Translations under genes and position numbers: made by a program
In this document: piece after piece, positions 2,911 to 33,120 of the stretch
Layout: every line of letters starts with the position of its first letter
Numbering within the stretch: position 1 is the stretch's first letter
The notes under the pieces: model-generated
What the model saw: the letters and a program-made list of their open reading frames with translations, nothing else
Database searches by the model: none
Told to the model about the DNA's origin: nothing
Virus record (IMG/VR): IMGVR_UViG_3300046170_000391
DNA from: a virus
Length of the DNA: 64,000 nt
Direction: 5' to 3' (one strand)

Positions 2911-3086
2911 TAATCTTTTACCGCCATATGACAATTATGTGTTGGCGTTGTCATCATTTGTTTAGTCCAGTCAAGTTCTTGAATTAATCTATTATACCAA
3001 GCTTGATCCATTGGGTCATGAGCTTTTGCCATATCTTCTTTTAATTGCCCAATTCTTACGTTAATATATTTTTCTGCCTTACTCAT
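2910..3086 (-). CDS. Hypothetical phage protein
   Basis: Likely start MSKAEK overlapping the end of the thermonuclease gene. Confidence 0.5.
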   Translation of the reverse strand: MSKAEKYINVRIGQLKEDMAKAHDPMDQAWYNRLIQELDWTKQMMTTPTHNCHMAVKD

Positions 3087-3540
3087 CGCACCAACCCTTT
3101 TTAGCCCCACCGTCATAAGGACGAGCTAAACCTTTATCAATTAAAATGTCAGAATAAAGAAGACCGTCTAGATACACATTTGAAAGTATACGTCCTCCAT
3201 ATTTATCCCATTTGAGATCTTTAAACTCAATAGTTTTCGCAGCGCGAAATAACTCGTTAGCAGTTTGTCTACCAATAAGTGCTAATTCTTTTTCTTTTTC
3301 ACATTTACCTTTTATTTCAGGAGTATCGATACCAAGTACCCTCACACTCATTTTACTTAACTTACCTGGAAGAACTGGGGCTGAAACGTAACAAGTATCA
3401 CCATCATAGCAAACATTACCTCTAAACTCTCTCATCTGCAAAAAATCAGAAGCAAAGGCTAAGTTTGCAAATAAGATTACGAATATAGCTAAAGAAAATC
3501 CAGCTAATAGTTCCAATCCAAATTTATCAATTTTCTTCAT
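3079..3540 (-). CDS. Thermonuclease (SNase-like) with N-terminal membrane anchor/signal
   Basis: YDGDT, VRVLGIDTPE, DKYGGRILS, GLARPYDGG motifs. Confidence 0.9.
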   Translation of the reverse strand: MKKIDKFGLELLAGFSLAIFVILFANLAFASDFLQMREFRGNVCYDGDTCYVSAPVLPGKLSKMSVRVLGIDTPEIKGKCEKEKELALIGRQTANELFRAAKTIEFKDLKWDKYGGRILSNVYLDGLLYSDILIDKGLARPYDGGAKKGWCDE

Positions 3541-4574: not shown

Positions 4575-5534
4575 TTAAAGTCCGTTAGGTACGATTACAT
4601 AATGAATAGATAAGACTACTCCAACAGAAGCAGCAAGTCCGACCATCATTTTAAGAAAGTCTTTTCCTATTAGTGGAAATACAACTTTGAACTTTTCCTT
4701 GCCTGTCATAGTTGCCATAGCAAGTTCACGTCCACATAGTAACCCTACAAATACCCAGGTGGTTGACATGGGTATATCATTTAGCTCTTTAAAAAAGAAT
4801 AAGATAACCCAATATACGGCATCAATAATTGTAGCGGAGCGAACATAACGAGTATTATGCTTCTCTAAAACAATATTTTGAATTTTACCTCCACCTTCTC
4901 TAAACATGAACCAAAGTCCACCTACAAAGATAATAGAAATTGCAAACATCATATCCGCAGGAATTTGTCTTGGTAAAAAGACTGCAATATTTGCGATATC
5001 ATGGGATAACCAAGTCCACCAAAGAAAACCTGTTGTTACCCATTGTCCGATTCTCCACCAACGCTTATGTTCTTCTTTAACTGGTTTAGATTCGTCTAAA
5101 ATTTTAGTTACACCAATCCATATAGCATAGGCAGCAACAGCAGCTACAGCATATCCCATCATGGATTTCATTAACATTTTTTCTAGTACAAAAGTAGAAG
5201 CAAAGGCTGAAAGTACTAAAAAAGATGTGCTAACAGGCACACCGATCCGCGTTAGTAGAAGTAGAAGTCCAGGGGCTAACGCGTGATACCACTGAATTTC
5301 TTGGAAGGGGATTTTATTCAGTCTTCCATAGGAGATGTCTCCTCCATATGTAAACCACCCGTACCATAATGCCCATAACAAAACAGACGAAGCAGCAAGC
5401 CACATCGTCCTCCAATGAAATCGTTCGTTGTTAGAAGCAATCCAAGTACCAAGAGTTTGTACTGAGTCATTTGCTATTACTGAATACGCAGCAAATAAAA
5501 AACCAACACCCATCCAAAGAGTTAAAAGTTCCAT
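4575..5534 (-). CDS. PiT/PHO4-like inorganic phosphate transporter
   Basis: Polytopic membrane protein with duplicated PiT-type signatures ANDSVQTLGT/PVSTSF and SHDIANIA/PMSTTW; Pho box upstream. Confidence 0.75.
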   Translation of the reverse strand: MELLTLWMGVGFLFAAYSVIANDSVQTLGTWIASNNERFHWRTMWLAASSVLLWALWYGWFTYGGDISYGRLNKIPFQEIQWYHALAPGLLLLLTRIGVPVSTSFLVLSAFASTFVLEKMLMKSMMGYAVAAVAAYAIWIGVTKILDESKPVKEEHKRWWRIGQWVTTGFLWWTWLSHDIANIAVFLPRQIPADMMFAISIIFVGGLWFMFREGGGKIQNIVLEKHNTRYVRSATIIDAVYWVILFFFKELNDIPMSTTWVFVGLLCGRELAMATMTGKEKFKVVFPLIGKDFLKMMVGLAASVGVVLSIHYVIVPNGL

Positions 5535-5555
5535 TTTAATTTCTCCTTAGAAAAG

Positions 5556-5581
5556 TAATAAGAGGCTATAGCCTCTTATTA
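5556..5581. repeat. Perfect 26-bp palindrome TAATAAGAGGCTATAGCCTCTTATTA
   Basis: Exact self-reverse-complement; could be a terminator for the synthetase-tRNA transcript and/or a 5' hairpin of the PiT mRNA. Confidence 0.75.
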
Positions 5582-5583
5582 TT

Positions 5584-5617
5584 AGTATATTATAAAATTG
5601 TTACAGTTTTGTGAAAT
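5584..5617 (-). promoter_or_regulatory. Pho-box (PhoB-dependent) promoter for the PiT-like transporter
   Basis: Minus strand ATTTCAC-AAAA-CTGTAAC (5617-5600), 10-nt spacer, -10 TATACT (5589-5584), matching PhoB box geometry. Confidence 0.65.
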
Positions 5618-5632
5618 TTTAAAAATTTAAAT

Positions 5633-5717
5633 TGGCTGTGGAGGATGGAGTCGAACCATCACGCCTTTCGGCACACGAGAAACAGTCGTGCGTGTCTACC
5701 AGTTTCACCACCCCACA
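5633..5717 (-). tRNA. Atypical tRNA-Asn(GUU) with class II long variable arm, encoded CCA
   Basis: TGTGGGG TG GTG AAACTGGTAGA CAC G CACGA CTGTTTC TCGTG T GCC GAAA GGC GT GATGG TTCGACT CCATC CTCCACA G CCA; all stems pair; anticodon at 5683-5681. Confidence 0.9.
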
Positions 5718-5722
5718 ATAAA

Positions 5723-6553
5723 TTATGCTGCGAGCTGAAGCTGGGTATCAAGAGCCGCAATCATGCGAGTCATACCAATACCTCCGCCCACACGTGGGAA
5801 GAAGTCAAACTTTAAAAACTCTTCAAGTTCTGCCTCTACGCGTTCTTTACCAAACAGTTCAAACAGTAGGTTAGCGTAGGCTCCATCAGTAATTGTGTGG
5901 AAAGTGTTGCGCATCATATCAATATCGCATGAGCGTTCTGCTGAACCGATAGTTTCCATACCCCCAAGAATAACATCAATCTTTTTAGAGGTTAGTCCGT
6001 TTTCATAGCGGCTCATGTTCCAAAATGGTGAAGTAAACTCAGGGAAGTCCGTAATCATAGTAGTACTAAAATCATTAAACATTGCGATTTCATGCTCTGC
6101 CTCAAGTTCTCCGTCAACCTTATAATGCTTTTGCCATGCTTCGTAGGTCTTCTCAATCGGGCGATCAAAACCCAGATAATCTACAAGTTCATATTCCATC
6201 TTTTTAAGGTCTACAATATCACCTGGCATTTCAAATTCAAACATAGGGAAGATGATATCATGCCTACCAGGGATAGCATTAGGTTCTTGTCTGTACGAAG
6301 TTGAGACACAAAAAAAGCCCTTTTCATTGGGCTGAGAGAGTAACTCATGTTCTAACCACATCTGACCGGTTTGTGGAAGAGGCCAAACTTGACCAGCATA
6401 GTTATATGTAGCAACGTTGAAAGGATCTTCGCAAGCTGCAAGGATAGAAAGACGGTTCTGTGTGTGAACTTCTTTAAAACCTTTATCTAAAAAAAATGAC
6501 CTTAAAAGGCCAACGGTGTGAGTAAATTTTGTAGGGGAAATTAGTTGAGTCAT
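5723..6553 (-). CDS. Class IIb AsnRS-like catalytic-domain-only protein (no anticodon-binding domain), 276 aa
   Basis: Motif 1 LRSFFLDKGFKEV, QTGQMWLE, motif 2 YRQE..RH..FPMFEFE, ETIGSAER, motif 3 GGGIGMTRM; ATG at 6553 with AAGAAAGGT RBS. Confidence 0.85.
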   Translation of the reverse strand: MTQLISPTKFTHTVGLLRSFFLDKGFKEVHTQNRLSILAACEDPFNVATYNYAGQVWPLPQTGQMWLEHELLSQPNEKGFFCVSTSYRQEPNAIPGRHDIIFPMFEFEMPGDIVDLKKMEYELVDYLGFDRPIEKTYEAWQKHYKVDGELEAEHEIAMFNDFSTTMITDFPEFTSPFWNMSRYENGLTSKKIDVILGGMETIGSAERSCDIDMMRNTFHTITDGAYANLLFELFGKERVEAELEEFLKFDFFPRVGGGIGMTRMIAALDTQLQLAA

Positions 6554-6574
6554 TATTATACCTTTCTTGTATAT

Positions 6575-6603
6575 AAAAAGACGCGCAGATTTAAAACCTG
6601 CGC
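6575..6603 (-). promoter_or_regulatory. Leader hairpin GCGCAG...CTGCGC followed by a T run (terminator/attenuator-like)
   Basis: Stem 6603-6598/6588-6583 then GTCTTTTT, lying between the promoter and the RBS of the AsnRS-like gene. Confidence 0.5.
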
Positions 6604-6615
6604 TCAAATTAACCA

Positions 6616-6644
6616 ATTATATAAGAAGTATAGTAAGTATGCAA
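6616..6644 (-). promoter_or_regulatory. Sigma70-type promoter TTGCAT-N17-TATAAT for the AsnRS-like/tRNA unit
   Basis: Read directly; exact 17-nt spacer. Confidence 0.7.
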
Positions 6645-6665
6645 ACATAATTTAATTTTAAATAC

Positions 6666-7760
6666 TTACTCTGGTAGTTGATATAGTCTTATCACTTGTT
6701 TTGTAATGTACTGTATTTCATCGTCTGTTAAGTGTGGATTTATAGGAATTGAAAGAGCATGTTTTGCAAAATACTTAGAGTAAGGTAGTTCTTTTTTATC
6801 TTCAACCCATTTAAGTTCTGAAAATACATCGGGATAATGACATTCTGAATCTATGCCTACTTTTTGAAGTCTTTGATACATCTCAAACTTATCATCTACT
6901 TCAATAACATATTTATGAGTATTATTTTCAGAATACCTAGGAGAAGGACGAAATTTCACATCATGTTCATAAAACTGAGTATCATAATAGTCCCATATTT
7001 CAAGTCTTCTTTTTTGCCAAGCATCAACCCAGTTAGTAGCCGACCAAATCTGAGCAGCCTTATCTTCTTCTGGCACTGCGTTGATTCCTGACGACACCCA
7101 CTCAGATCTTCTACTATACTTGCCATGTTTACGTAAAGATAAAAGTTTAAAATATTTTGAAGTATCATTTAAGAGCACTGCTCCAAAAGTGCCTAAGCTA
7201 GGAATCGGTTTGTTTTCTGCAAAAGAAATACAAGCAATGTCACCTCTACTCATAGGTTCTTCACCTTTGTAACGACCAAGGTAGCTTTGTGAAGCATCAT
7301 TTATATGTATCAAACCATACTTATTACATATATAAGAGACTTCATCAATATCATAGGAATCTCCATATAACCCAGTACCTGTTATAGCTTTTGTTTTAGG
7401 AGTGATAAGTTTTTCAATTTTATCTGTATCAATTAAACCAAATCGATCTACATCACAAAAAATAGGAGTGGCGCCTGAATTAATGACATAGGTTAAAGAA
7501 GCCATGCAACTATAACCTGTAATAATTACTTCATCACCTGCCCCTATATCATTTACTAATAGTGCTAAATGTAATGCTTGAGAACCGCTTCTTACTAAAA
7601 GAGCGTGTTTTCTATCTGCAATTTTTTGTAAATAGTGTTCAACCTTATTAGTATAAAACCCATTAACAGTTTTTTCAGAACCAGAGATTACTTCAAGGCT
7701 ATTGAAATAGTCTTCTTTTATATCTTGAAAACGTCTTGCTAGGTTATATGTATGAATCAT
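6666..7760 (-). CDS. DegT/DnrJ/EryC1/StrS PLP-dependent sugar aminotransferase
   Basis: SGSQALHLAL, GDEVI, INDASQS, SFAENKPI (PLP Lys), LSIPINPHL. Confidence 0.9.
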   Translation of the reverse strand: MIHTYNLARRFQDIKEDYFNSLEVISGSEKTVNGFYTNKVEHYLQKIADRKHALLVRSGSQALHLALLVNDIGAGDEVIITGYSCMASLTYVINSGATPIFCDVDRFGLIDTDKIEKLITPKTKAITGTGLYGDSYDIDEVSYICNKYGLIHINDASQSYLGRYKGEEPMSRGDIACISFAENKPIPSLGTFGAVLLNDTSKYFKLLSLRKHGKYSRRSEWVSSGINAVPEEDKAAQIWSATNWVDAWQKRRLEIWDYYDTQFYEHDVKFRPSPRYSENNTHKYVIEVDDKFEMYQRLQKVGIDSECHYPDVFSELKWVEDKKELPYSKYFAKHALSIPINPHLTDDEIQYITKQVIRLYQLPE

Positions 7761-8324: not shown

Positions 8325-9035
8325 TTAATCATAATTCTTTTTTACATGAGCATGATTTTTGTACCAATCTTCTCTATCTTTTTGCATTTCTGCACGTTTC
8401 TTCTTTGTTTTACGTAGCTCTTGTTTATCTAACCAAGTAACTTTAGAAGTCCAAGTATCTCTACGAACAGGTATAACCTGACATATAGGAGTGCCAGCAG
8501 GAATAATTACTTCCGGACCTCCTGCTTCTAGCATTGAATGGATAAAAGGTATATTTACTATATTATCAAAAGTATCAGTATCCACAAGCCCTGTAAGAGG
8601 AATAATAGGATTATCAAGCCTGTTTAGAGGAGGTAAAAATAGTAATGAGTAGTCTTTTGGGGTTTCAATTCGCCAAGGATTCATCCACTTGAGAACTGTA
8701 AATGATTCCATTGGAGATCCGGGTATCTGTCTCATAGGATGAGTCTCGATTGGGGGCCATTTAGAGATAAGTATTTTGTGCTTTTCATCAATGAAATCTA
8801 GCTTTAAAGACAAATCAGAAAGTTGTCTAATAACAATATCAACATGGTTGAGAAGCATATAACCAGCAGTCATTGCATCCAAAAACGGTACACATTTTTT
8901 AACTGTTTGGTCGCCATCATTCCAAGCTGGTGTTTTTTTAAACCAGTCTGGTACTGTGCGTTTAGTAGGAATTGGGGGAAGTACAATTTGATCAGGAAAA
9001 TCCTGCATTAAATGAAATTTGATTAGTTTTTTCAT
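8325..9035 (-). CDS. Conserved phage protein, DUF6065-like beta-clip fold
   Basis: TVKKCVPFLDAMTAGY, PWRIETPKDYSLLF, GLVDTD, IPAGTPICQVIP. Confidence 0.55.
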   Translation of the reverse strand: MKKLIKFHLMQDFPDQIVLPPIPTKRTVPDWFKKTPAWNDGDQTVKKCVPFLDAMTAGYMLLNHVDIVIRQLSDLSLKLDFIDEKHKILISKWPPIETHPMRQIPGSPMESFTVLKWMNPWRIETPKDYSLLFLPPLNRLDNPIIPLTGLVDTDTFDNIVNIPFIHSMLEAGGPEVIIPAGTPICQVIPVRRDTWTSKVTWLDKQELRKTKKKRAEMQKDREDWYKNHAHVKKNYD

Positions 9036-9193
9036 GCAGAAGCAACATTAGTTGGAGTAAAAAAAGTAGAAGGAACTTCCTCAGATGTAGTACCACAATC
9101 GCAAATATCACAACCACACGCACCGTTCTCGCAACAGTCCCACGCACAATGGCAGTTACATCCGCATTTCTTACAATTCTTCGTTTCGATCAT
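9032..9193 (-). CDS. Metallothionein-like Cys-rich peptide (53 aa)
   Basis: MIETKNCKKCGCNCHCAWDCCENGACGCDICDCGTTSEEVPSTFFTPTNVASA; 11 Cys plus His; ATGA overlaps with both neighbours; below the ORF-track cutoff. Confidence 0.75.
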   Translation of the reverse strand: MIETKNCKKCGCNCHCAWDCCENGACGCDICDCGTTSEEVPSTFFTPTNVASA

Positions 9194-10278
9194 GCAGCTA
9201 AACTTTCGGGTAAATGAATTAGGGGATTAGAAGGATTAACACCTAAAAACTTGCCCCATTCTGCATAATAATGACGCATACCAACTTCGTCATGAATAGT
9301 CGAATTCTCATGTCTACCATGTAGTATGTTTCTTGATTCTGTTCCCTCACGCATCGTAGTACCCTGCCCAGCAACGCCAATAAGGTCTTCGTGTAGATTA
9401 CGACCAAAAGGACCCCAGATGGAGTTGTGATGTTTTATGCGTGTTTGTCTTTCTTCTGGTGTATCTTTTCTTAGTCCATATCCACGAAACTCAATAAGAA
9501 CTTTATTAGGACCAAGGGGTGTTACCGAGTCTGAACGATATGCGCTCCCACGGAGGTTAAAATTGAATCCTGGGAAGAGGTCAACCATGTACCACTGGTT
9601 GGGCGGCAGATTGGGAAAAGATAGTTCCCCGCGATCTTCAAATCCATCATACTCTTCATAGTTAACAGTAAAGCTGCTAACATTAACATGACCATTATCA
9701 AAAGGAATATTCTTTCTAGCGAAATACTCATCGTTAAATCCTGACACTCTGTTGAAATAATGCATAAAGTCATGATAGAACTCGCTGTTAGTATCATGCC
9801 ATAATTTATAATTAGTATCTATAATAGCTTTATGATAATGAAATACTTCCATTTCTTCAGTATCAATGGCATCTGCAATACAATCAAATGCACCTGCTGT
9901 CCATTCATCTACGCTTTGTGTAGGATTAGGATCAAGTGTTACCCAAACCATTCCACCATGTTTTACTTCACAGTGTAGTTGTGGTTCGACTGTTACGATT
10001 GGTGCAGCGACTGTACCAGATGGAGAATTAAATCCATGATTACAATATGCCTTAACACCGTCTTTGGTATTTACTGCAATCACATTCTGTCCAGCAATCT
10101 GTGTGGTTCTATAGTTGCCTTCATTGTACATCTCTGAGATATGACACATAGGAACCCAAACTTTACTAAAGATCATTTCTTGTTCTGCTAGATAAACATC
10201 GTGACTATTATAACAGTCACTACTAATATATTCAATTTTCGGTAATTTAGTCCAATTGTTATGGTTTCTTGGTGCCAT
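9190..10278 (-). CDS. Ring-hydroxylating oxygenase alpha subunit, MsmA (methanesulfonate monooxygenase)-like, Rieske cluster motif missing
   Basis: EQEMIFSKVWVPMCH..YRTTQIAG N-terminus; NYKLWHDTNSEFYHDFMH mononuclear-Fe motif; LFPGFNFN; HEDL; likely start MAPRNH; MsmA subfamily call is from recall. Confidence 0.75.
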   Translation of the reverse strand: MAPRNHNNWTKLPKIEYISSDCYNSHDVYLAEQEMIFSKVWVPMCHISEMYNEGNYRTTQIAGQNVIAVNTKDGVKAYCNHGFNSPSGTVAAPIVTVEPQLHCEVKHGGMVWVTLDPNPTQSVDEWTAGAFDCIADAIDTEEMEVFHYHKAIIDTNYKLWHDTNSEFYHDFMHYFNRVSGFNDEYFARKNIPFDNGHVNVSSFTVNYEEYDGFEDRGELSFPNLPPNQWYMVDLFPGFNFNLRGSAYRSDSVTPLGPNKVLIEFRGYGLRKDTPEERQTRIKHHNSIWGPFGRNLHEDLIGVAGQGTTMREGTESRNILHGRHENSTIHDEVGMRHYYAEWGKFLGVNPSNPLIHLPESLAA

Positions 10279-10660
10279 CTTCGTTTCCTTCTTCCATTGC
10301 TGATTCATAATAAATTATGATTTCATTTTGTTGATCAATAAAACGTTTAATATCTGCTATGTTAAGTGCTAAATTTTCATAATCTTTTATAGCTAAAGCG
10401 ACATAAGCTAACTCACCATTTTCTTCTGTAAAATCTTTTACAAACTGGTCGTAGTTATCTTTATTAACCACATAAACTCTAGTATCAACTAGCTGGAGTG
10501 GTTTGGGCCTTGCTACTACTGGTACTGTTATTTTCTGAGTCTGAGTTACTACCTTGACTTCCTGTTCGGGGATCAGGCTGCAACCAGTTAGGAAGAGGCT
10601 TGCTATCACTACTGCCAGTGCTTTCCATGAAGTCTCTCCAAAGTTTAGCTGTTGCTCCAT
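10259..10660 (-). CDS. Outer-membrane spanin (Rz1-like lipoprotein)
   Basis: Lipobox LTGC, Pro-rich segment, overlaps the 3' part of the i-spanin in another frame. Confidence 0.7.
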   Translation of the reverse strand: MEQQLNFGETSWKALAVVIASLFLTGCSLIPEQEVKVVTQTQKITVPVVARPKPLQLVDTRVYVVNKDNYDQFVKDFTEENGELAYVALAIKDYENLALNIADIKRFIDQQNEIIIYYESAMEEGNEDGTKKP

Positions 10661-12083: not shown

Positions 12084-12741
12084 CTCTCCTGTTCTTTAAC
12101 AAAGGTAAAAAGGGAACAGCACTTTTTTCAAAAATAATCGGATCATCGTTTTCAACAGTCATAATAATTGCTATATCTTGAATTCCTGTACCATACATTT
12201 CATTATGTGCAACAGCGTATGCACAGCCTTGAATATAGTAGTCCGTAATTTGCTTTTGATTCTTTTTCTTTTTTGATGTTTTAAAATCAATAATTGTAGG
12301 CTTGCCTTTCCATATACCTACCATGTCTGTTCTTCCTGCATAGCGGTATTTATTAGACCATAGTACTTGTTCTTGTCCCCAAACTTCTTCAACACCTGTT
12401 TCAGTAGCTCTAATAAGATTAGCGGTCATAGATCTAACATCCAACTGTAATGTCTTGATTTCTTCCCAGACGTCTTCTCCGTTGAAGTGTCTTTCAGCAA
12501 GCTCATGAACAAGCGTGCCTCTATCCGTAGCAAGTTTAGAAATGCGTGCAGCTTCTTCTTCACCAACTTTATCCTTCCATCTTTGTAACCAAGTTTGATC
12601 TGATGTCTTACCTAGTATAGTTGTAATAGATGGGTAGGACCCATCAGGGGTATGATAAGTTCTACCAGTAGGTAATGTGTCTGTGTCTACTTCAGTTAGA
12701 TACTTGAACTTCTCTTTTGTAATCTTCCACTGTGTTAACAA
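12046..12741 (-). CDS. PD-(D/E)xK exonuclease (Cas4-like phage exonuclease)
   Basis: YPSITTIL, RGTLVH, YAGRTD, IIDFKTS, QGCAYA. Confidence 0.85.
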   Translation of the reverse strand: MLTQWKITKEKFKYLTEVDTDTLPTGRTYHTPDGSYPSITTILGKTSDQTWLQRWKDKVGEEEAARISKLATDRGTLVHELAERHFNGEDVWEEIKTLQLDVRSMTANLIRATETGVEEVWGQEQVLWSNKYRYAGRTDMVGIWKGKPTIIDFKTSKKKKNQKQITDYYIQGCAYAVAHNEMYGTGIQDIAIIMTVENDDPIIFEKSAVPFLPLLKNRRDEFDKLQRNTST

Positions 12742-14059
12742 TAGGTTTTCCTTTTGCGTTTAAACTCGTGTTTATCAGTATGGGGTATCCATATTGTCTG
12801 GTTATCTCTAGTACTTTCCAAATATAAGCATTTTTATTGCGACTAACTAGTTGAAGACGAGCTGATTTATCATGAGTAGTAAAATTACCTCCAATAATAT
12901 CAGCAACAAATAGCATATCATGACTAGGCTGATAAATCTTAAACCACGTATCAGCTTCTTCTTCTTGACAAATAGGGGCATAAGGCCTCCAGGAATCTGT
13001 ATCACGTTTCTTAATTTTGTTTAATTTTTTAATATTATCATTTGTAGGAATACAGAGCAAGCTACGATTACCTAATGCACGAGGCCCAAACTCAGCCTTT
13101 CCCTGTATAATAGGAACAATTTCTCCTTTTAGTAATCTTTCCGCCGCCTCATCTGTAGTGACATCATTAGTATCGGTTATCCCTAAATAAGCACTCTCCC
13201 ATAAAGGTCTACAAATTAATGCCGCTGCTCCTAAAGCACACCCTGCATCTCCTGCTGCAGGTTGTATCGCTACTGAATCAAATCCTGAGTGTTTTTTTAT
13301 TTTAGTATTAGCGACACAGTTTAATGCTACTCCTCCTGCATATGCTAAGTTTTTCATACCAGTTTCTTGTTGGAGCCACGTAGCCAACGCAAGAAGAACA
13401 TTTTCAGTAACTCTTTGAACTGAAGCAGCAACATCCCAATCTAAAATACCGTAACCAACACCACGTTCAAGGTTATGCAATAGAGTGTAATCTCCATCCG
13501 CATTCCAATCTATTATTTTTTGATTTATCCAAGGTAACCACTTCGGCTCTCCATGAGCAGCTGCTGCCATTACTTGAGACTCATCACAAAGAGGTTTAAG
13601 TCCCAAGAAACGAGTAGCACTAGAGTAAAATAAACCAATAGAGTTTGGATACATAAACCTTTTAATCCATTCAATTTTGCCATTTTGATAAACTCCTAAA
13701 GATGTTGAATATTTACCTCCTACGGTATCTACCACCATAACGGCACACTCATACCAATCAGTCAAAAGGACAGAGCTCATAGCATGTGCTTCATGATGAT
13801 CTACTAAAACAGGTTGAGCTTTAGTAATCTTTTTAATTTCTGATTTAAAATCGTTGTAAGTAGACTCTTCATAAAAAGCAGCAAACTCAAAGTCTTCATA
13901 TACATCTTGCAACCATTTTACTGTATTATGAGGGAAGGATTTATCATATTTTTTACGAGTAAAACGTTCCTCATGAGAAGCACCAACTATTGAAGTATCT
14001 TTTATAAATGCTGCAGCGCTATCGTGGTGATAACAGCTGACTCCTAGTATGTTCATCAA
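12692..14059 (-). CDS. Carbamoyltransferase (NodU/CmcH/TobZ family)
   Basis: HDSAAA, EERFTRKK, HHEAHA, GGVALNC, AGDAG, EFGPRALGNRS, RPYAP, NTSLN. Confidence 0.9.
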   Translation of the reverse strand: MMNILGVSCYHHDSAAAFIKDTSIVGASHEERFTRKKYDKSFPHNTVKWLQDVYEDFEFAAFYEESTYNDFKSEIKKITKAQPVLVDHHEAHAMSSVLLTDWYECAVMVVDTVGGKYSTSLGVYQNGKIEWIKRFMYPNSIGLFYSSATRFLGLKPLCDESQVMAAAAHGEPKWLPWINQKIIDWNADGDYTLLHNLERGVGYGILDWDVAASVQRVTENVLLALATWLQQETGMKNLAYAGGVALNCVANTKIKKHSGFDSVAIQPAAGDAGCALGAAALICRPLWESAYLGITDTNDVTTDEAAERLLKGEIVPIIQGKAEFGPRALGNRSLLCIPTNDNIKKLNKIKKRDTDSWRPYAPICQEEEADTWFKIYQPSHDMLFVADIIGGNFTTHDKSARLQLVSRNKNAYIWKVLEITRQYGYPILINTSLNAKGKPIVNTVEDYKREVQVSN

Positions 14060-19813: not shown

Positions 19814-20866
19814 GTGCCTTTATCAATCCCCAGTATTCCCCATAAATCAAGAATGAAGGCTCATAAACTTCAATACTTAAGAGCCATATCTGATTCTATG
19901 GATTATCCTTTTCAATCTGAAGATGGAAGAGATCCTTCTGCCTCACATCAAGAATTAACAGAAACTTGTGTTGAATATACTGACATACCTTACTGGCAGT
20001 TTACAAACTGTTGTACTGACTCACTACAAATCGCTTTTTCAATGTTGTGCAAAGTAGGAGATACAGTCATCGTACCTGCTTATGGTTGGAGAGCGGTAAC
20101 AAATGCTCCACAGTTTGTAGGTTTAAATGTTATATATTGTGATATTGATGAGACAGGTAACGTTAGTATTTCAGAGTTGCATCGTCTAATATATGAAAAT
20201 CAACCTGCTGCAATACTAATAATTCACAATTTCGGCACGGTAGTAGACGTATCAGAATTAACAGGTATTTGTGAAAAGTACGGTGTTAAAATTATTGAAG
20301 ACGCTGCCCAAGCATTTGTAATGAAAGAACCCTATGACTATAAAATTGGTTCTTGCGCTGACATAGTATGTTTTTCTTTTGATTTTACTAAATCTCCTGG
20401 TACCTTAGGTGCTGGAGGGGCAATAGCTACTTATAATCCAGATCATTTTACAAAAATTAAATCAATTTGTTCTCATATCACTAATGAGTTGGGAATTGGG
20501 ACAAAATCGTATTTAGATACTACTGCAGCAGCAGTGCTCAATTGTGATATAAAACTTATAGAGCAAATGCAGTATAGACAGCGTAGAGTCGAAGTTGCTA
20601 CTTACTATATAAACAAACTTCCTTATGAAACTCTGAGCGGAAAAAATTATATCTTTCATCGTTTTATAATTTTACCTGATAAAAGTGAAAAACAAGATCT
20701 AATTAACAAACTAAAGTCACAAAAAATTCTAGCTAAACCTGTATATAAACCTAATACAGATGCTTGTACTTATGCAAATAGATTCTACGAGAGTGCAATT
20801 GAGCTCCCTTGTCATCAGTTTATTGATGTAAATGACTTAAATTCAAGAATTGAAAAAATATTATGA
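19814..20866 (+). CDS. DegT-family aminotransferase
   Basis: GDTVIVPAY, IIEDAAQA, FSFDFTKSPGTLGAGGA, IELPCH. Confidence 0.9.
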   Translation: MPLSIPSIPHKSRMKAHKLQYLRAISDSMDYPFQSEDGRDPSASHQELTETCVEYTDIPYWQFTNCCTDSLQIAFSMLCKVGDTVIVPAYGWRAVTNAPQFVGLNVIYCDIDETGNVSISELHRLIYENQPAAILIIHNFGTVVDVSELTGICEKYGVKIIEDAAQAFVMKEPYDYKIGSCADIVCFSFDFTKSPGTLGAGGAIATYNPDHFTKIKSICSHITNELGIGTKSYLDTTAAAVLNCDIKLIEQMQYRQRRVEVATYYINKLPYETLSGKNYIFHRFIILPDKSEKQDLINKLKSQKILAKPVYKPNTDACTYANRFYESAIELPCHQFIDVNDLNSRIEKIL

Positions 20867-23737: not shown

Positions 23738-24880
23738 ATGTTTAATTTTAATACAACTCCACGTTTAGTAATCGGCGCAAATAGATTACAGTTCTTAGGC
23801 ACACTTCTTTCCGACCTTGGAATCAAAAACCCTTTAATAGTGACAGGTCCTAATCTTGCAAAATCTAAAATCATAACTGAGACACAAAAATGGTCTTGGA
23901 CTGATAATGTATTCTGTGATTTAGTACAGGATCCAACGACTCAGAATGTGTTAGACTGTGTTGAATATGGAATAAGTAAAGACGTAGATGGAGTTATTGG
24001 TATCGGGGGTGGATCATCTCTTGATGTAGCAAAAGTTGCTTCTGTGTTATTAAAACAGGAAACATCTTTAGAAAACATTTGGGGTGTAGACAATGTTTAT
24101 AGTTCAAGACTACCTTTAATTCTTATACCTACCACCTCGGGGTCAGGATCAGAAGTTACCCCAGTTTCAATTATTACAACAGGTGAGACAACAAAAATGG
24201 GAATTGTTTCTCACAGAATCATTCCAGATGCAGCAATTCTTGACCCTCTTCTTACAGTTTCTTGTAACCCTCAACTAACTGCATATAGCGCAATAGATGC
24301 GATGGTTCATGCTATCGAATCATACACTTCTATAAATCCCAATAACAATCCTTACTCAAAAATGCTTGCACTTGAAGCTTGTCGCTGGTTAGGTAAATCA
24401 ACAAAAACTGCCATCTTAGAGCCAAGTAATATCGAAGCAAGAGCTAATGTACAATATGGATCTATGTTGGCCGGGCAGGCATTTGGTAATTCGCCAGTAG
24501 CAGCAGTTCATGCATTAGCCTACCCACTAGGTGGGTACTTTAAACTGCCACATGGTTTAACAAATACTTTGGTTCTTCCTGGTGTTTTAGAGTATAATCA
24601 AGAAAATACAGACTATTCAACTCTTGCTACTGCTTTATTTCCTCATGATGAAGGAGAAATATACTACTATAAAGGTGATGTTGTTGAAGTAATGTGCAGA
24701 AATATCAAAGAATTAGCAGAGTTAGCAGGAATCGAAACTCGAATGAGTGATTATGGAATCAGTGCAGAGCATATTCCAATGTTAGCAGAAGAGGCAATGA
24801 AACAATCTAGGCTCTTGGTAAATAATCCGAGAGAAATTACAGAAGAAGTTGCAAAAGAAATTTACTGGGAAGTTCTATAA
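23738..24880 (+). CDS. Iron-containing alcohol dehydrogenase
   Basis: GIGGGSSLDVAK, IPTTSGSGSEVT, DAMVHAIESY, VHALAYPLGG..LPHG. Confidence 0.92.
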   Translation: MFNFNTTPRLVIGANRLQFLGTLLSDLGIKNPLIVTGPNLAKSKIITETQKWSWTDNVFCDLVQDPTTQNVLDCVEYGISKDVDGVIGIGGGSSLDVAKVASVLLKQETSLENIWGVDNVYSSRLPLILIPTTSGSGSEVTPVSIITTGETTKMGIVSHRIIPDAAILDPLLTVSCNPQLTAYSAIDAMVHAIESYTSINPNNNPYSKMLALEACRWLGKSTKTAILEPSNIEARANVQYGSMLAGQAFGNSPVAAVHALAYPLGGYFKLPHGLTNTLVLPGVLEYNQENTDYSTLATALFPHDEGEIYYYKGDVVEVMCRNIKELAELAGIETRMSDYGISAEHIPMLAEEAMKQSRLLVNNPREITEEVAKEIYWEVL

Positions 24881-26279: not shown

Positions 26280-27260
26280 ATGAAATTTATACTTAGAAAA
26301 GACATAAAAATAGATCTTTTTGAGAGGCATCTTAGAAAGGCTAGAGCAAGTAATCAATTTTCTAATTACGGAGCTGCGGTACAAGACCTAGAATTAAAAG
26401 CTCGTGAAATGCTTAAAATTGATGATTCAAAAGCTATAATAGCTGTGAATAACGGCTCTTCATGTGTTACTACTATAGTATACGCTTTTCAGAGGGCTTT
26501 TGGTAATCATCTTAACGTGCTCACTCAAGATTTTACATTTCCCTCTAATGCACAAATCGGGGCAAGCGGCGCTCAAAAAACAGATTTTACAGACGCTTTA
26601 GATATACATTTGGACTTTCCTTATTGGGATCAAATAAAAATAGTAATTGTAACTAACATATTTGGTCACTTGCAAGACTTAAACATGATAATTAATAAAT
26701 GTAATGATTCAGATAAACTATTAATATTTGATAACGCGGCCACTCCATATTCTTTTTATGAAGGAACTAATTCGTGTAATTTAGGAACAGCTTCTTATAT
26801 TTCTCTTCACCATACTAAGCCTCTTGGTTTCGGAGAAGGAGGGTTAGTAATAATCAATAAAGAATACGAGAAAGAGGCTAGGGCAGTTATAAATTTCGGT
26901 CCGACCGAGGGCAATGAGTTTAATGAAAGAGGTAGCAATTTTAAAATGAGTGAGATTGCGGCAGCGGGAATTCTTCAGTGGTGGGATCAATTCGATATTG
27001 AAGACCTAAAAGAAAAATTCCTTAATAATTACTTTAAGAAACGTTATGAGTTAGCAAATCAAAAAGGTATTTTTTATCCAAATAAAGGAGATGATAACTT
27101 TTTTCCTTCATGTTTACCTTTTATCCACGATAATCCTACAGAAGCAAACAAAGACAATGAAGAATTTAAGTATTATAAGCCCTTAGTGGGTTTGCAAAAT
27201 TCTAAACTTGTGTATGAAAACATTATCTGTTATGGGCTAACTGAGGATTGGTATGTATAA
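26280..27260 (+). CDS. DegT-family aminotransferase
   Basis: VTNIFG, IFDNAAT, SLHHTKPLGFGEGG, NFKMSEIAAA. Confidence 0.88.
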   Translation: MKFILRKDIKIDLFERHLRKARASNQFSNYGAAVQDLELKAREMLKIDDSKAIIAVNNGSSCVTTIVYAFQRAFGNHLNVLTQDFTFPSNAQIGASGAQKTDFTDALDIHLDFPYWDQIKIVIVTNIFGHLQDLNMIINKCNDSDKLLIFDNAATPYSFYEGTNSCNLGTASYISLHHTKPLGFGEGGLVIINKEYEKEARAVINFGPTEGNEFNERGSNFKMSEIAAAGILQWWDQFDIEDLKEKFLNNYFKKRYELANQKGIFYPNKGDDNFFPSCLPFIHDNPTEANKDNEEFKYYKPLVGLQNSKLVYENIICYGLTEDWYV

Positions 27261-31956: not shown

Positions 31957-33120
31957 ATGATAATTGAGATTATTGGTAAATTTTTCGATAACCACTCGTT
32001 ATCTATAATTAATAGAAATATAGCAATTAGATTAATGAATAATGATTCTGTTGAATTATTAATTACTCCATTAGACACTTATGACCCAGTACATAAAGTA
32101 GATAAAAACACTATCAAAAAGCTAAAAGAGCTTAATAATAAAGAAGCTTCTGATACTCCTGATATACAAGTTAGACATTGTTACCCACCTGTATGGACAT
32201 GGCCTGTTCACGAAAAAACAAAGGTTATATTTATACAGCCTTGGGAATTTTTAAAAGCACCATTTGAGTGGCAATACAAATTTGAAACTTTTGCTGACGC
32301 GCTAATCGTACCTAGTAACTATGAAGCTGATGTTTTCAAACTAGGAGGACTTAATCCTTCAAATCTTTTTGTAGTACCTAATGGCTATGATGAAAATATC
32401 TTTAATACAGAAGATACTAATAATAATCATCCGTCAGTTAATAAAGATAAATTCAATTTTATATATGTAGGTAATCCGCAATGGAGAAAAGGGCTAGATA
32501 TATTAATTAATGTATGGGGAAAAGCGTTTAAGAAATATGATAATGCGCATCTCATCATTAAGGATACTCCTCGTATATATGGAAAAAATAATATACTTAG
32601 TGAGATTATTAAAATGCAGTACAAATCGGGATGCGCTGGTATTACCTATTTAGATGATGATATGTCTGATTTAGAAATGGCAGAATTATTTAAAAGTTGT
32701 GATATTGTCGCACACCCCTATAGAGCTGAAGGATTTGGTATGCATGTACAAGAAGCTATAGCGTGCGGATGTGTCCCTATTATACCTGATCAAGGTCCTA
32801 CAAATGATTTTGTTCCCGAGGGTGCTGGTATTAAATTCAAAACTAATAAAGAAGCGATTGATATAACTAATGGACAGATCTTTGCTACTAAACCTGGAGA
32901 TGCTATGACTTTAATGAGCAGTCATACTTTTACAAATGAACCTGATGGACAAAGTGTCGAAGGTGCTTTAAAATACGTATATCATCATCATGATAAAAAA
33001 GAATTATTTAAGTGTATATCAAATGCAGAACTCAATACATGGGACTCAGTAGTAGATAAGTATATGGAGGTATTTTTAAATGTCGGACAACGTGAAAAAG
33101 CTAATAGATTCAGATATTGA
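31957..33120 (+). CDS. Glycosyltransferase family 4 (GT-B)
   Basis: VVPNGYD, RKGLDILI, PYRAEGFGMHVQEAIACG. Confidence 0.9.
   Translation: MIIEIIGKFFDNHSLSIINRNIAIRLMNNDSVELLITPLDTYDPVHKVDKNTIKKLKELNNKEASDTPDIQVRHCYPPVWTWPVHEKTKVIFIQPWEFLKAPFEWQYKFETFADALIVPSNYEADVFKLGGLNPSNLFVVPNGYDENIFNTEDTNNNHPSVNKDKFNFIYVGNPQWRKGLDILINVWGKAFKKYDNAHLIIKDTPRIYGKNNILSEIIKMQYKSGCAGITYLDDDMSDLEMAELFKSCDIVAHPYRAEGFGMHVQEAIACGCVPIIPDQGPTNDFVPEGAGIKFKTNKEAIDITNGQIFATKPGDAMTLMSSHTFTNEPDGQSVEGALKYVYHHHDKKELFKCISNAELNTWDSVVDKYMEVFLNVGQREKANRFRY

Follow-up and report, generated by a model that had tools for sequence, protein, structure and literature searches.

What use does a phage have for an asparaginyl-tRNA synthetase (AsnRS) core without an anticodon-binding domain, encoded directly in front of an unusual tRNA with an asparagine anticodon? 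This question is raised by positions 5,633 to 6,644 of a stretch of 64,000 nucleotides (hereafter the window, meaning the whole stretch analysed) from the IMG/VR virus record IMGVR_UViG_3300046170_000391. There, the minus strand encodes an AsnRS-like class IIb catalytic core of 276 amino acids followed, after a spacer of exactly 5 nt, by an 85-nt tRNA with the anticodon GUU. An earlier note on this DNA, made from the letters alone, had interpreted the two genes as a private pair supplying Asn-tRNA for translation or, as a second option, as an aminoacyl donor for a non-ribosomal reaction. The evidence presented here favours the second option. We tentatively propose that the enzyme activates asparagine and is tied to the supply of dihydroorotate, and that the tRNA is its dedicated asparaginyl carrier; both the chemistry and the loading of the tRNA are what we infer.

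An AsnRS-like core and its tRNA

The open reading frame of the enzyme (protein P0001) starts with an ATG at 6553 and runs on the minus strand over 6553-5726 to a stop codon at 5725-5723, thus occupying 5723..6553 including the stop. The Pfam family tRNA-synt_2 (PF00152; D, K, N synthetases) matches residues 14-268 with an E-value of 1.2e-14, and PHROG 29758, of unknown function, matches at 8.6e-129. The scores lie far below the cut-offs of all curated NCBIfam models (22.7 versus 342.6 bits for asnS, TIGR00457; 20.3 versus 389 bits for AsnA, NF005055). AlphaFold, run on a 53-sequence alignment, gave a model of the enzyme with a pLDDT of 96.3, and the best solved folds for this predicted structure are the catalytic domains of AsnRS and aspartyl-tRNA synthetase (AspRS), with the AsnRS of P. 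horikoshii (1X54) at the top. The profile of the family ranked eukaryote-type AsnRS first (2XTI, 7e-15), archaeal AspRS second and, at a clear distance, AS-AR, an asparagine synthetase of archaea (3P8T, 1.2e-7), with bit scores of 58 for AsnRS and 34.5 for 3P8T. In these comparisons residues 11-14 of the enzyme align to about residues 140-170 of AsnRS chains, and the relatives are 260-300 amino acids long. Since the alignments start at about residue 140 of the synthetases, the N-terminal OB-fold anticodon domain is absent, so that the description of the protein in the earlier note, a 276-residue class IIb core with motifs 1-3 and no OB-fold, was correct.

The pocket motifs QTGQMWLE and FPMFEFE are both present and can be aligned column for column with the QSSQLYLE / SGQL..GE of AsnRS and with the E-x-E that follows motif 2. 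The lysine with which AspRS binds aspartate is replaced by Leu67, and this leucine is found in all members of the family. Residues Q61, Q64, L67, E68, R88, E90, R97, H98, E106, E108, E200, R207, R254 and R263 are invariant in the family. Motif 2 is represented by R88-x-E90...R97-H98...F102 with a full-length loop, while E106-x-E108, D193, E200, R207 and the motif 3 sequence G-G-G-I-G-x-x-R are invariant or nearly so. Judged by its motifs, the site for ATP and the amino acid appears to be intact throughout, with a side-chain pocket of the Asn type rather than the Asp type. Alignments and the predicted fold hence support an AsnRS-type catalytic core, not one of the AspRS or AS-AR type, as had been anticipated from the two pocket motifs. 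Canonical AsnRS (1X54; B. malayi 2XTI/2XGT; human 8H53/8TC8) shares the fold, motifs 1-3 and the Asn-type pocket (Q..Q.LE, R-x-E, E-x-E, E...R, G-x-G-x-G-x-x-R) with the phage enzyme, which, however, has no OB-fold or hinge, is only 18-25% identical and has relatives that are linked to pyrimidine genes. Canonical AsnRS is therefore the closest known system by fold and site, yet two of its defining features, the anticodon domain and a score above the model cut-off, are missing.

Behind the 5-nt spacer (5718..5722) the tRNA extends over 5633..5717 on the minus strand. ARAGORN calls it Asn (GTT), the Rfam tRNA model RF00005 assigns it 43.8 bits (gathering score, 29), and our own covariance model gives 100.4 bits. 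As read from the sequence, it has U1-A72, G73 and an encoded CCA, a Leu-like D arm with a 3-bp stem and an 11-nt loop, a variable arm of 13 nt (GCC-GAAA-GGC, with a GAAA tetraloop) and the anticodon loop C-U-G-U-U-U-C, which places a U at position 37. The distance of 5 nt from the stop codon, the GUU anticodon, U1-A72, G73 and the class II body had all been noticed before and are confirmed. The tRNA is under selection, and a chance tRNA-like fold is ruled out by covariation in 46 homologous tRNAs: 99.5% of the cells form standard pairs and compensatory changes occur in 17 of 24 pairs, values that none of 500 shuffles reached and that slid registers came nowhere near.

In the 46 aligned tRNAs, U1-A72, G73, G18 G19, the T loop and G34 U35 U36 are invariant. 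Position 37, in contrast, is a U in 39, an A in 9 and a C in 5 of 53 distinct tRNAs, and one lineage carries C33. The length of the variable arm differs as well: the shortest arms have 13 nt and a GNRA-type loop, as in the window, the longest about 30 nt and a stem of roughly 10 bp, and these long-arm forms are miscalled or missed by ARAGORN. Because our covariance model ranks phage tRNA-Leu genes (62-69 bits) above the normal phage tRNA-Asn (51 bits), the body of the molecule can be called Leu-like, with asparagine identity at both ends. Of the traits of a bacterial tRNA-Asn it has GUU, G73 and U1-A72; a class I body with a variable loop of 4-5 nt and a purine at position 37 are lacking. The combination of U1-A72 with the lack of a nucleotide 20A is the identity set of the bacterial amidotransferase GatCAB (PMC1635274), and the window tRNA has both U1-A72 and no extra nucleotide between G19 and A21. 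A role as decoy or terminator only was rejected, as GUU, G73 and U1-A72 are invariant. Since GUU is kept while position 37 drifts and one lineage has C33, an anticodon read by a protein is favoured over ribosomal decoding, as far as the tRNA sequences suggest.

A two-gene cassette of phages

Relatives of the enzyme are present at no fewer than 598 loci of IMG/VR, which makes the cassette very common in the sea, and the protein search returned at least 8000 candidates. Linkage from enzyme to tRNA was counted on the best 80 phage loci: the tRNA lies 5-130 nt downstream of the enzyme gene in 79 of them, one of these being cut by the end of the contig yet recognisable, and the only exception (L085) has a terminator in its place. 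A search in the opposite direction, with the tRNA motif only, yielded 78 new loci, at 76 of which the enzyme gene immediately precedes the tRNA on the same strand; at the remaining two, the contig breaks off about 65 nt before the tRNA begins. At testable loci the tRNA is accordingly never found apart from the enzyme (76/76). The earlier note had predicted that homologs would be linked to a downstream GUU tRNA with a long variable arm, and in phages this linkage is nearly absolute (79/80 and 76/78). The enzyme, on the other hand, can do without the special tRNA: besides L085, this is the case in two huge phages, whose enzymes are at 47% identity, and in a sister group that is 63% identical. 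A long-arm tRNA(GUU) was not found elsewhere in these two huge phages, where the best matches to the model are tRNA-Leu genes and one normal 74-nt tRNA-Asn. Given that the enzyme occurs without the tRNA and the tRNA not without the enzyme, the dependence is one-sided: the tRNA needs the enzyme, not vice versa.

In a quick maximum-likelihood tree the tRNA-linked phage enzymes form a well-supported group (SH-aLRT 99), with P-SSM2/P-SSM7 as sister at an SH-aLRT of 90, which is below the 95% level marked by a star. The nesting of L085 within the tRNA-linked clade points to a loss of its tRNA. No third gene is conserved beside the pair, the commonest neighbour being present at 28 of 162 loci. The cassette is also carried by the cultured T4-like cyanophages P-SSM2, P-SSM5 and P-SSM7, in which the gene is annotated as 'tRNA ligase' and which open the cassette to experiment. 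The phage of the window is of another kind, with a family A polymerase, a DnaB-type helicase and an NAD ligase; its PolA is about 40% identical to those of known phages, and a megablast of the locus against cultured phages gave no match; the phage of the window is an uncultured one. Enzyme and tRNA are one mobile phage cassette that moves as a unit between unrelated phage backbones. We found no paper on the enzyme family, its pyrimidine link or the phage pair, and a jumbo-phage review that names P-SSM2 is silent on the pair. Whatever its function may be, the GenBank label 'tRNA ligase' is inadequate.

Two observations on existing records concern this cassette. In the P-SSM2 genome (L002, AY939844.2), GenBank places the tRNA-Asn PSSM2_199 at 164094-164179, inside a coding sequence, whereas ARAGORN and our own model locate it at 162083-162171, directly after the 'tRNA ligase' gene; the annotated coordinates look misplaced. 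Furthermore, eight contigs with a phage-type enzyme (L215-L222), five of them also with the long-arm tRNA, have been binned into metagenome-assembled genomes of bacteria and archaea (Legionellales, Flavobacteriaceae, Chloroflexota, Poseidoniia and others). Two of these, L215 and L216, are the same contigs as the IMG/VR viral contigs L014 and L024, and the whole set looks like mis-binned phage DNA.

Pyrimidine gene context and the role of the pair

An exhaustive search for the enzyme family returned 683 clusters at E <= 0.001, and two of the proteins found are fusions with enzymes of pyrimidine synthesis. In the first (P0124), PyrD is fused to an enzyme that is 53% identical to the window protein and has the same site motifs, and the gene adjoins one for orotidine monophosphate decarboxylase. 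The second (P0141) joins the enzyme, here 43-46% identical to the window protein, to PyrF and adjoins pyrE and pyrD. Copies in bacterial genomes are 55-63% identical to the window protein; those of Bacteroidota have UMPS and pyrD nearby, and in two Alphaproteobacteria pyrF directly follows the enzyme gene. No tRNA(GUU) was found beside cellular or fused copies. In the tree, which is a quick maximum-likelihood estimate with weakly resolved deep branches, the family forms one clade apart from canonical AsnRS, separated from it by a very long branch, and the cellular enzymes nearest to the phage clade include the pyrF-linked ones of Alphaproteobacteria.

The gene content of 24 family-bearing genomes was compared with that of 14 control genomes at model cut-offs. 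PyrB was detected in 1 of the 24 against all 14 controls, type-I PyrC in 1/24 against 11/14, PyrD in 14/24 against 14/14 and PyrF in 13/24 against 14/14; GatB is present in 20 of the family-bearing genomes. E. coli-type PyrC was found in 1/14 controls and in 0/5 Bacteroidota (2.6-6.9 Mb). Three of these Bacteroidota genomes (2.6-6.7 Mb), those covered by all the searches, have PyrD, UMPS, AsnB and canonical AsnRS and lack PyrB and type-I PyrC; neither they nor the two further ones (3.0 and 6.9 Mb) have an E. coli-type PyrC. The enzyme family thus shows a strong genetic tie to the late pyrimidine enzymes in genomes without the early ones. The claim that the pair supplies Asn-tRNA for translation is not supported in the form in which it had been made. 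Against it speak the relatives at 53-63% identity, which share the active-site residues and are fused or adjacent to pyrimidine genes with no tRNA(GUU) beside them, the lack of PyrB and PyrC in family-bearing genomes, and the variation at position 37 of the phage tRNA.

How might an AsnRS-derived enzyme contribute to pyrimidine synthesis? L-Dihydroorotate is asparagine with a carbonyl group bridging its alpha-amino and side-chain amide nitrogens, so that a pocket for asparagine would also fit this product. Aminoacyl adenylates are known to react with CO2 to N-carboxy-anhydrides. The family, after loss of the anticodon domain, would bind ATP and an asparagine-shaped substrate and activate the alpha-carboxyl group. 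In a first step Asn and ATP would give Asn-AMP; the alpha-amine would then capture CO2 to form the cyclic N-carboxy-anhydride; finally, the side-chain amide would attack the carbamate carbonyl of this anhydride, yielding dihydroorotate and freeing the carboxylate. In cells, judging from the gene context, the family might in this way replace the missing early pyrimidine enzymes and supply dihydroorotate dehydrogenase, and such a route would account both for the retention of the whole AsnRS site for activation of the alpha-carboxyl group and for the occurrence of the family in genomes that lack PyrB/PyrC while having AsnB, PyrD and PyrE-F.

In the phage branch the enzyme would have gained a dedicated tRNA, the acceptor end of which (U1-A72, G73, CCA) fits an AsnRS-type core. 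This tRNA would be a private carrier of the activated asparaginyl group and not a decoder. It might be loaded by host enzymes that read GUU and G73, either a non-discriminating AspRS together with GatCAB or AsnRS, and the phage enzyme would take the asparaginyl group back as Asn-AMP, in a reversal of the transfer step of a synthetase. Aspartate could thereby be drawn into pyrimidine synthesis past the feedback-controlled first steps of the host. We slightly prefer loading by the host over self-loading by the phage enzyme, which is nearly as likely. In the proteins known to read GUU, AsnRS and non-discriminating AspRS, an OB domain does so, and the phage enzyme has none; moreover, the tRNA has the GatCAB identity set. 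In its full form, the proposal of a so far undescribed entry into pyrimidine synthesis, in which an AsnRS-derived enzyme makes dihydroorotate from activated asparagine and CO2 in place of carbamoyl-phosphate synthetase, aspartate carbamoyltransferase and dihydroorotase, and in which ocean phages combine it with a captive tRNA, which does not decode but delivers or holds the asparaginyl group, and bypass the feedback control of the host, is a possibility that we regard as doubtful. If the pyrimidine link were true, many bacteria would have an unrecognised ATP-using entry to a textbook pathway, and phages would make use of this entry by employing a tRNA as metabolic cofactor.

Parts of such a system have counterparts elsewhere. 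The pathway of non-discriminating AspRS and GatCAB likewise uses tRNA-Asn as a workbench for making an amino acid, and its identity elements, U1-A72 and no 20A (PMC1635274), recur in the phage tRNA. That pathway, however, serves translation and acts on a normal tRNA-Asn. The phage tRNA, in contrast, combines a class II body with a position 37 that drifts; its partner is an AsnRS-like enzyme, and its loading by host enzymes is presumed. PylRS with tRNAPyl and SerRS with its long-arm tRNA-Ser are synthetase/tRNA pairs that ignore the anticodon; they resemble the cassette in combining a dedicated enzyme with an unusual tRNA that is encoded next to it, for which recognition through the acceptor stem or the variable arm is possible. 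Fem transferases and cyclodipeptide synthases use aminoacyl-tRNA as an activated building block outside translation. To our knowledge, none of the PylRS, SerRS, Fem and cyclodipeptide synthase systems is an anticodon-domain-less class IIb core, a two-gene phage cassette or linked to nucleotide synthesis.

Several observations weigh against a role of the phage pair in dihydroorotate supply. Neither pyrD nor pyrF was found in P-SSM7, P-SSM2, the two huge phages or a 101-kb contig, nor among the annotated genes of the window; since the phages checked lack both genes, the product would have to enter the pathway of the host. Many Patescibacteria have the enzyme and no pyrimidine genes, which the dihydroorotate idea leaves unexplained. 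The complete chromosome of a Saccharibacterium (L252; 715,934 bp) encodes the enzyme and GatB, with no detectable PyrB, PyrC, PyrD, PyrF, AsnB or canonical AsnRS, and because the pyrimidine genes are not detected there, the enzyme cannot feed a genome-encoded de novo pathway to UMP. The recurrent neighbours in Patescibacteria are Dus (tRNA-dihydrouridine synthase), DnaX, SerRS, ClpP and trigger factor, in the arrangements Dus-enzyme-DnaX (13 loci from several classes: L223, L224, L228, L245, L250, L252, L254, L255, L259, L260, L271, L277 and L288) or ClpP/enzyme/trigger factor (8 loci). The former, near which a tRNA-Gln gene is often found 1-3 kb downstream and SerRS sometimes upstream, hints at a role related to tRNA. 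Moreover, the special tRNA is not needed for catalysis, as is shown by its absence beside the enzyme in L085, in the two huge phages and in fused as well as cellular forms. Class IIb synthetases approach their tRNA from the side of the variable loop, so that a long variable arm may hinder the AspRS or AsnRS of the host, contrary to a loading by these enzymes. The N-carboxy-anhydride route, finally, is one that we ourselves infer. It is because of the phages and Patescibacteria without pyrimidine genes and of the possible hindrance by the variable arm that we hold the dihydroorotate-linked enzyme with its carrier tRNA only as a tentative first choice and keep a function in translation under consideration.

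Such a function would make the cassette a true private AsnRS/tRNA-Asn pair, in which the tRNA decodes AAY codons after being charged with Asn by the mini-enzyme, which would recognise it by its acceptor stem and perhaps also by its variable arm; the phage would be freed from the AsnRS or the transamidation of its host, or could resist host anticodon nucleases. The intact AsnRS-type site with its full-length motif 2 loop would be expected in this case, as would G73, U1-A72, CCA, the canonical elbow (G18 G19, T loop) and the invariant GUU. That the tRNA is never found without the enzyme is what one would predict if only this enzyme charged it, the long variable arm could fend off the class IIb enzymes of the host, and canonical AsnRS is missing from some of the family-bearing bacteria. 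In Bacteroidota, however, the family and canonical AsnRS occur together, and the close relatives that are fused or linked to PyrD, PyrE and PyrF have no tRNA-Asn alongside. A pyrimidine at position 37, which is unconserved and was found in 44 of 53 variants, and the C33 of one lineage would be uncommon in a tRNA that decodes A/U-rich codons. The tRNA model, applied to the whole P-SSM2 genome, matched nothing tRNA-like except the cassette tRNA, so that this phage has a single such gene, although both phage and host are AT-rich. A pair for translation therefore seems to us an uncertain and rather unlikely alternative. If the enzyme did charge the tRNA, it would represent a natural synthetase/tRNA pair that does not read the anticodon and uses a class II tRNA body, which would be relevant to the rules of tRNA identity and to genetic-code engineering.

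It is improbable that the enzyme is a metabolic one working independently of tRNA, beside which an odd tRNA-Asn is kept for indirect reasons, such as offsetting a drain on asparagine or sharing a promoter or terminator. Many lineages do have the enzyme without the tRNA, and phage tRNA arrays are often near the locus; but the absence of any tRNA apart from the enzyme at the 76 testable loci, the movement of the pair as a unit between unrelated phages and a tRNA body that is unlike a normal tRNA-Asn, as our model favours tRNA-Leu, are all difficult to reconcile with such a loose association.

Still further behind, and very improbable, is an asparagine synthetase of the AS-AR/AsnA type, making free asparagine from aspartate, ammonia and ATP, which would then be used by the tRNA via the AsnRS of the host. 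AS-AR (the Pyrococcus 'AsnRS2', 3P8T/1NNH) and bacterial AsnA are likewise stand-alone class II cores of about 290 residues that pass an adenylate to a non-tRNA acceptor, so that the lack of an anticodon domain and a length equal to that of archaeal AS-AR agree with this explanation, as do the weak matches to 3P8T (1.2e-7) and NF005055 (20 bits). AS-AR, however, is derived from AspRS and binds aspartate, whereas the family studied here has an AsnRS-type pocket with leucine in place of the aspartate-binding lysine in all members; sequence and fold are nearer to AsnRS, and the AsnA model remains at 20 bits against its 389-bit cut-off. Furthermore, the family co-occurs with AsnB in Bacteroidota and is also found in genomes without AsnRS or any translational use for free asparagine, and the fusions with pyrimidine enzymes would stay unexplained. 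We know of no tRNA partner of AS-AR. EpmA/PoxA, which acylates EF-P, is also a class IIb core without anticodon domain that passes its adenylate to a non-tRNA acceptor, but it derives from LysRS. An EpmA-like acylation of a protein was rejected, as the match to the LysRS type is weak (3A5Y/3A5Z, about 27 bits) and the neighbour survey, which was not a search aimed at them, showed neither EF-P nor EpmB beside any copy of the enzyme. The phage enzyme thus resembles AS-AR and EpmA as a domain-less class IIb core and descends from neither.

Flanking signals and neighbouring genes

All signals around the module are given for the minus strand. A sigma-70-like promoter match, TTTGCA-N18-TATAAT, lies at 6616..6645 (10 of 12 positions; the register TTGCAT-N17-TATAAT overlaps it), and the ribosome-binding site AAGAAAGG lies at 6561..6568, 7 nt ahead of the ATG, with AAGGA-type sites at the same place in relatives. 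Both had been pointed out before, and both exist, but the promoter match is weak evidence because such sites are no commoner in this AT-rich region than in shuffles of it (5 found, 5.3 expected). In addition, a GC-rich hairpin of 9 pairs, 5 of them G-C, followed by the T run GTCTTTTT, intervenes at 6583..6603 between the promoter-like site and the ribosome-binding site. It could terminate transcription of the DegT-like gene upstream, or else serve the module as a leader attenuator. The hairpin is identical in the closest relatives (the same place was checked in L013, L014, L025, L029, L046 and L085), and more distant relatives have another small hairpin and two T8-9 tracts at this position. 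Leaders with U tracts are also the UTP-sensing device of several bacterial pyrimidine genes.

About 50 nt past the tRNA, at 5556..5581, a strong hairpin terminator with 11-13 pairs has a T run on either strand and, being palindromic, could act on both strands (5581-5556 as read along the module); terminator-like sites in the region number 5, against 0.6 expected. The 5-nt gap between the gene and the tRNA together with this terminator makes it likely, from the layout of the sequence, that both are co-transcribed. Contigs from two marine metatranscriptome studies span the gene and the gene-tRNA junction (5453-6028, 5300-5772 and 5627-5834), but transcript, end and strand are not readable from contigs and DNA carry-over is possible, so that nothing is concluded on expression; that these contigs leave 6650-6900 uncovered likewise proves nothing. 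A sub-threshold Rfam match to 'freshwater-2 RNA' at 5532-5595 on the minus strand (24.6 bits, threshold 49.9) overlaps the module terminator and the ribosome-binding site of the next gene, and is probably just the terminator plus an AAGGAG site.

Elsewhere in the window, a set of genes for sugar tailoring (6666-7760, 12692-14059, 19814-20866, 23738-24880, 26280-27260 and 31957-33120) encodes three DegT/DnrJ-type aminotransferases, a NodU/CmcH-type carbamoyltransferase, an Fe-alcohol dehydrogenase and a GT4 glycosyltransferase. Further genes encode a UvdE UV-endonuclease (484-1560), a staphylococcal-nuclease-like protein (3079-3540), a protein resembling the alpha subunit of ring-hydroxylating oxygenases (9190-10308) and a DUF6065 protein (8325-9035). 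In related phages, no gene neighbours the module more often than the oxygenase-like one (28/162 loci). A gene for a PnrA/Bmp-type nucleoside-binding lipoprotein, another nucleotide-supply gene, lies near the module at 24 of the 162 loci (L102, 1493-2560, and 23 others). Finally, ARAGORN detected tmRNA-like genes with tag peptides near the module and tRNA arrays in L037 (3933-4278), L058 (1097-1478) and both L080 and L081 (1101-1483).

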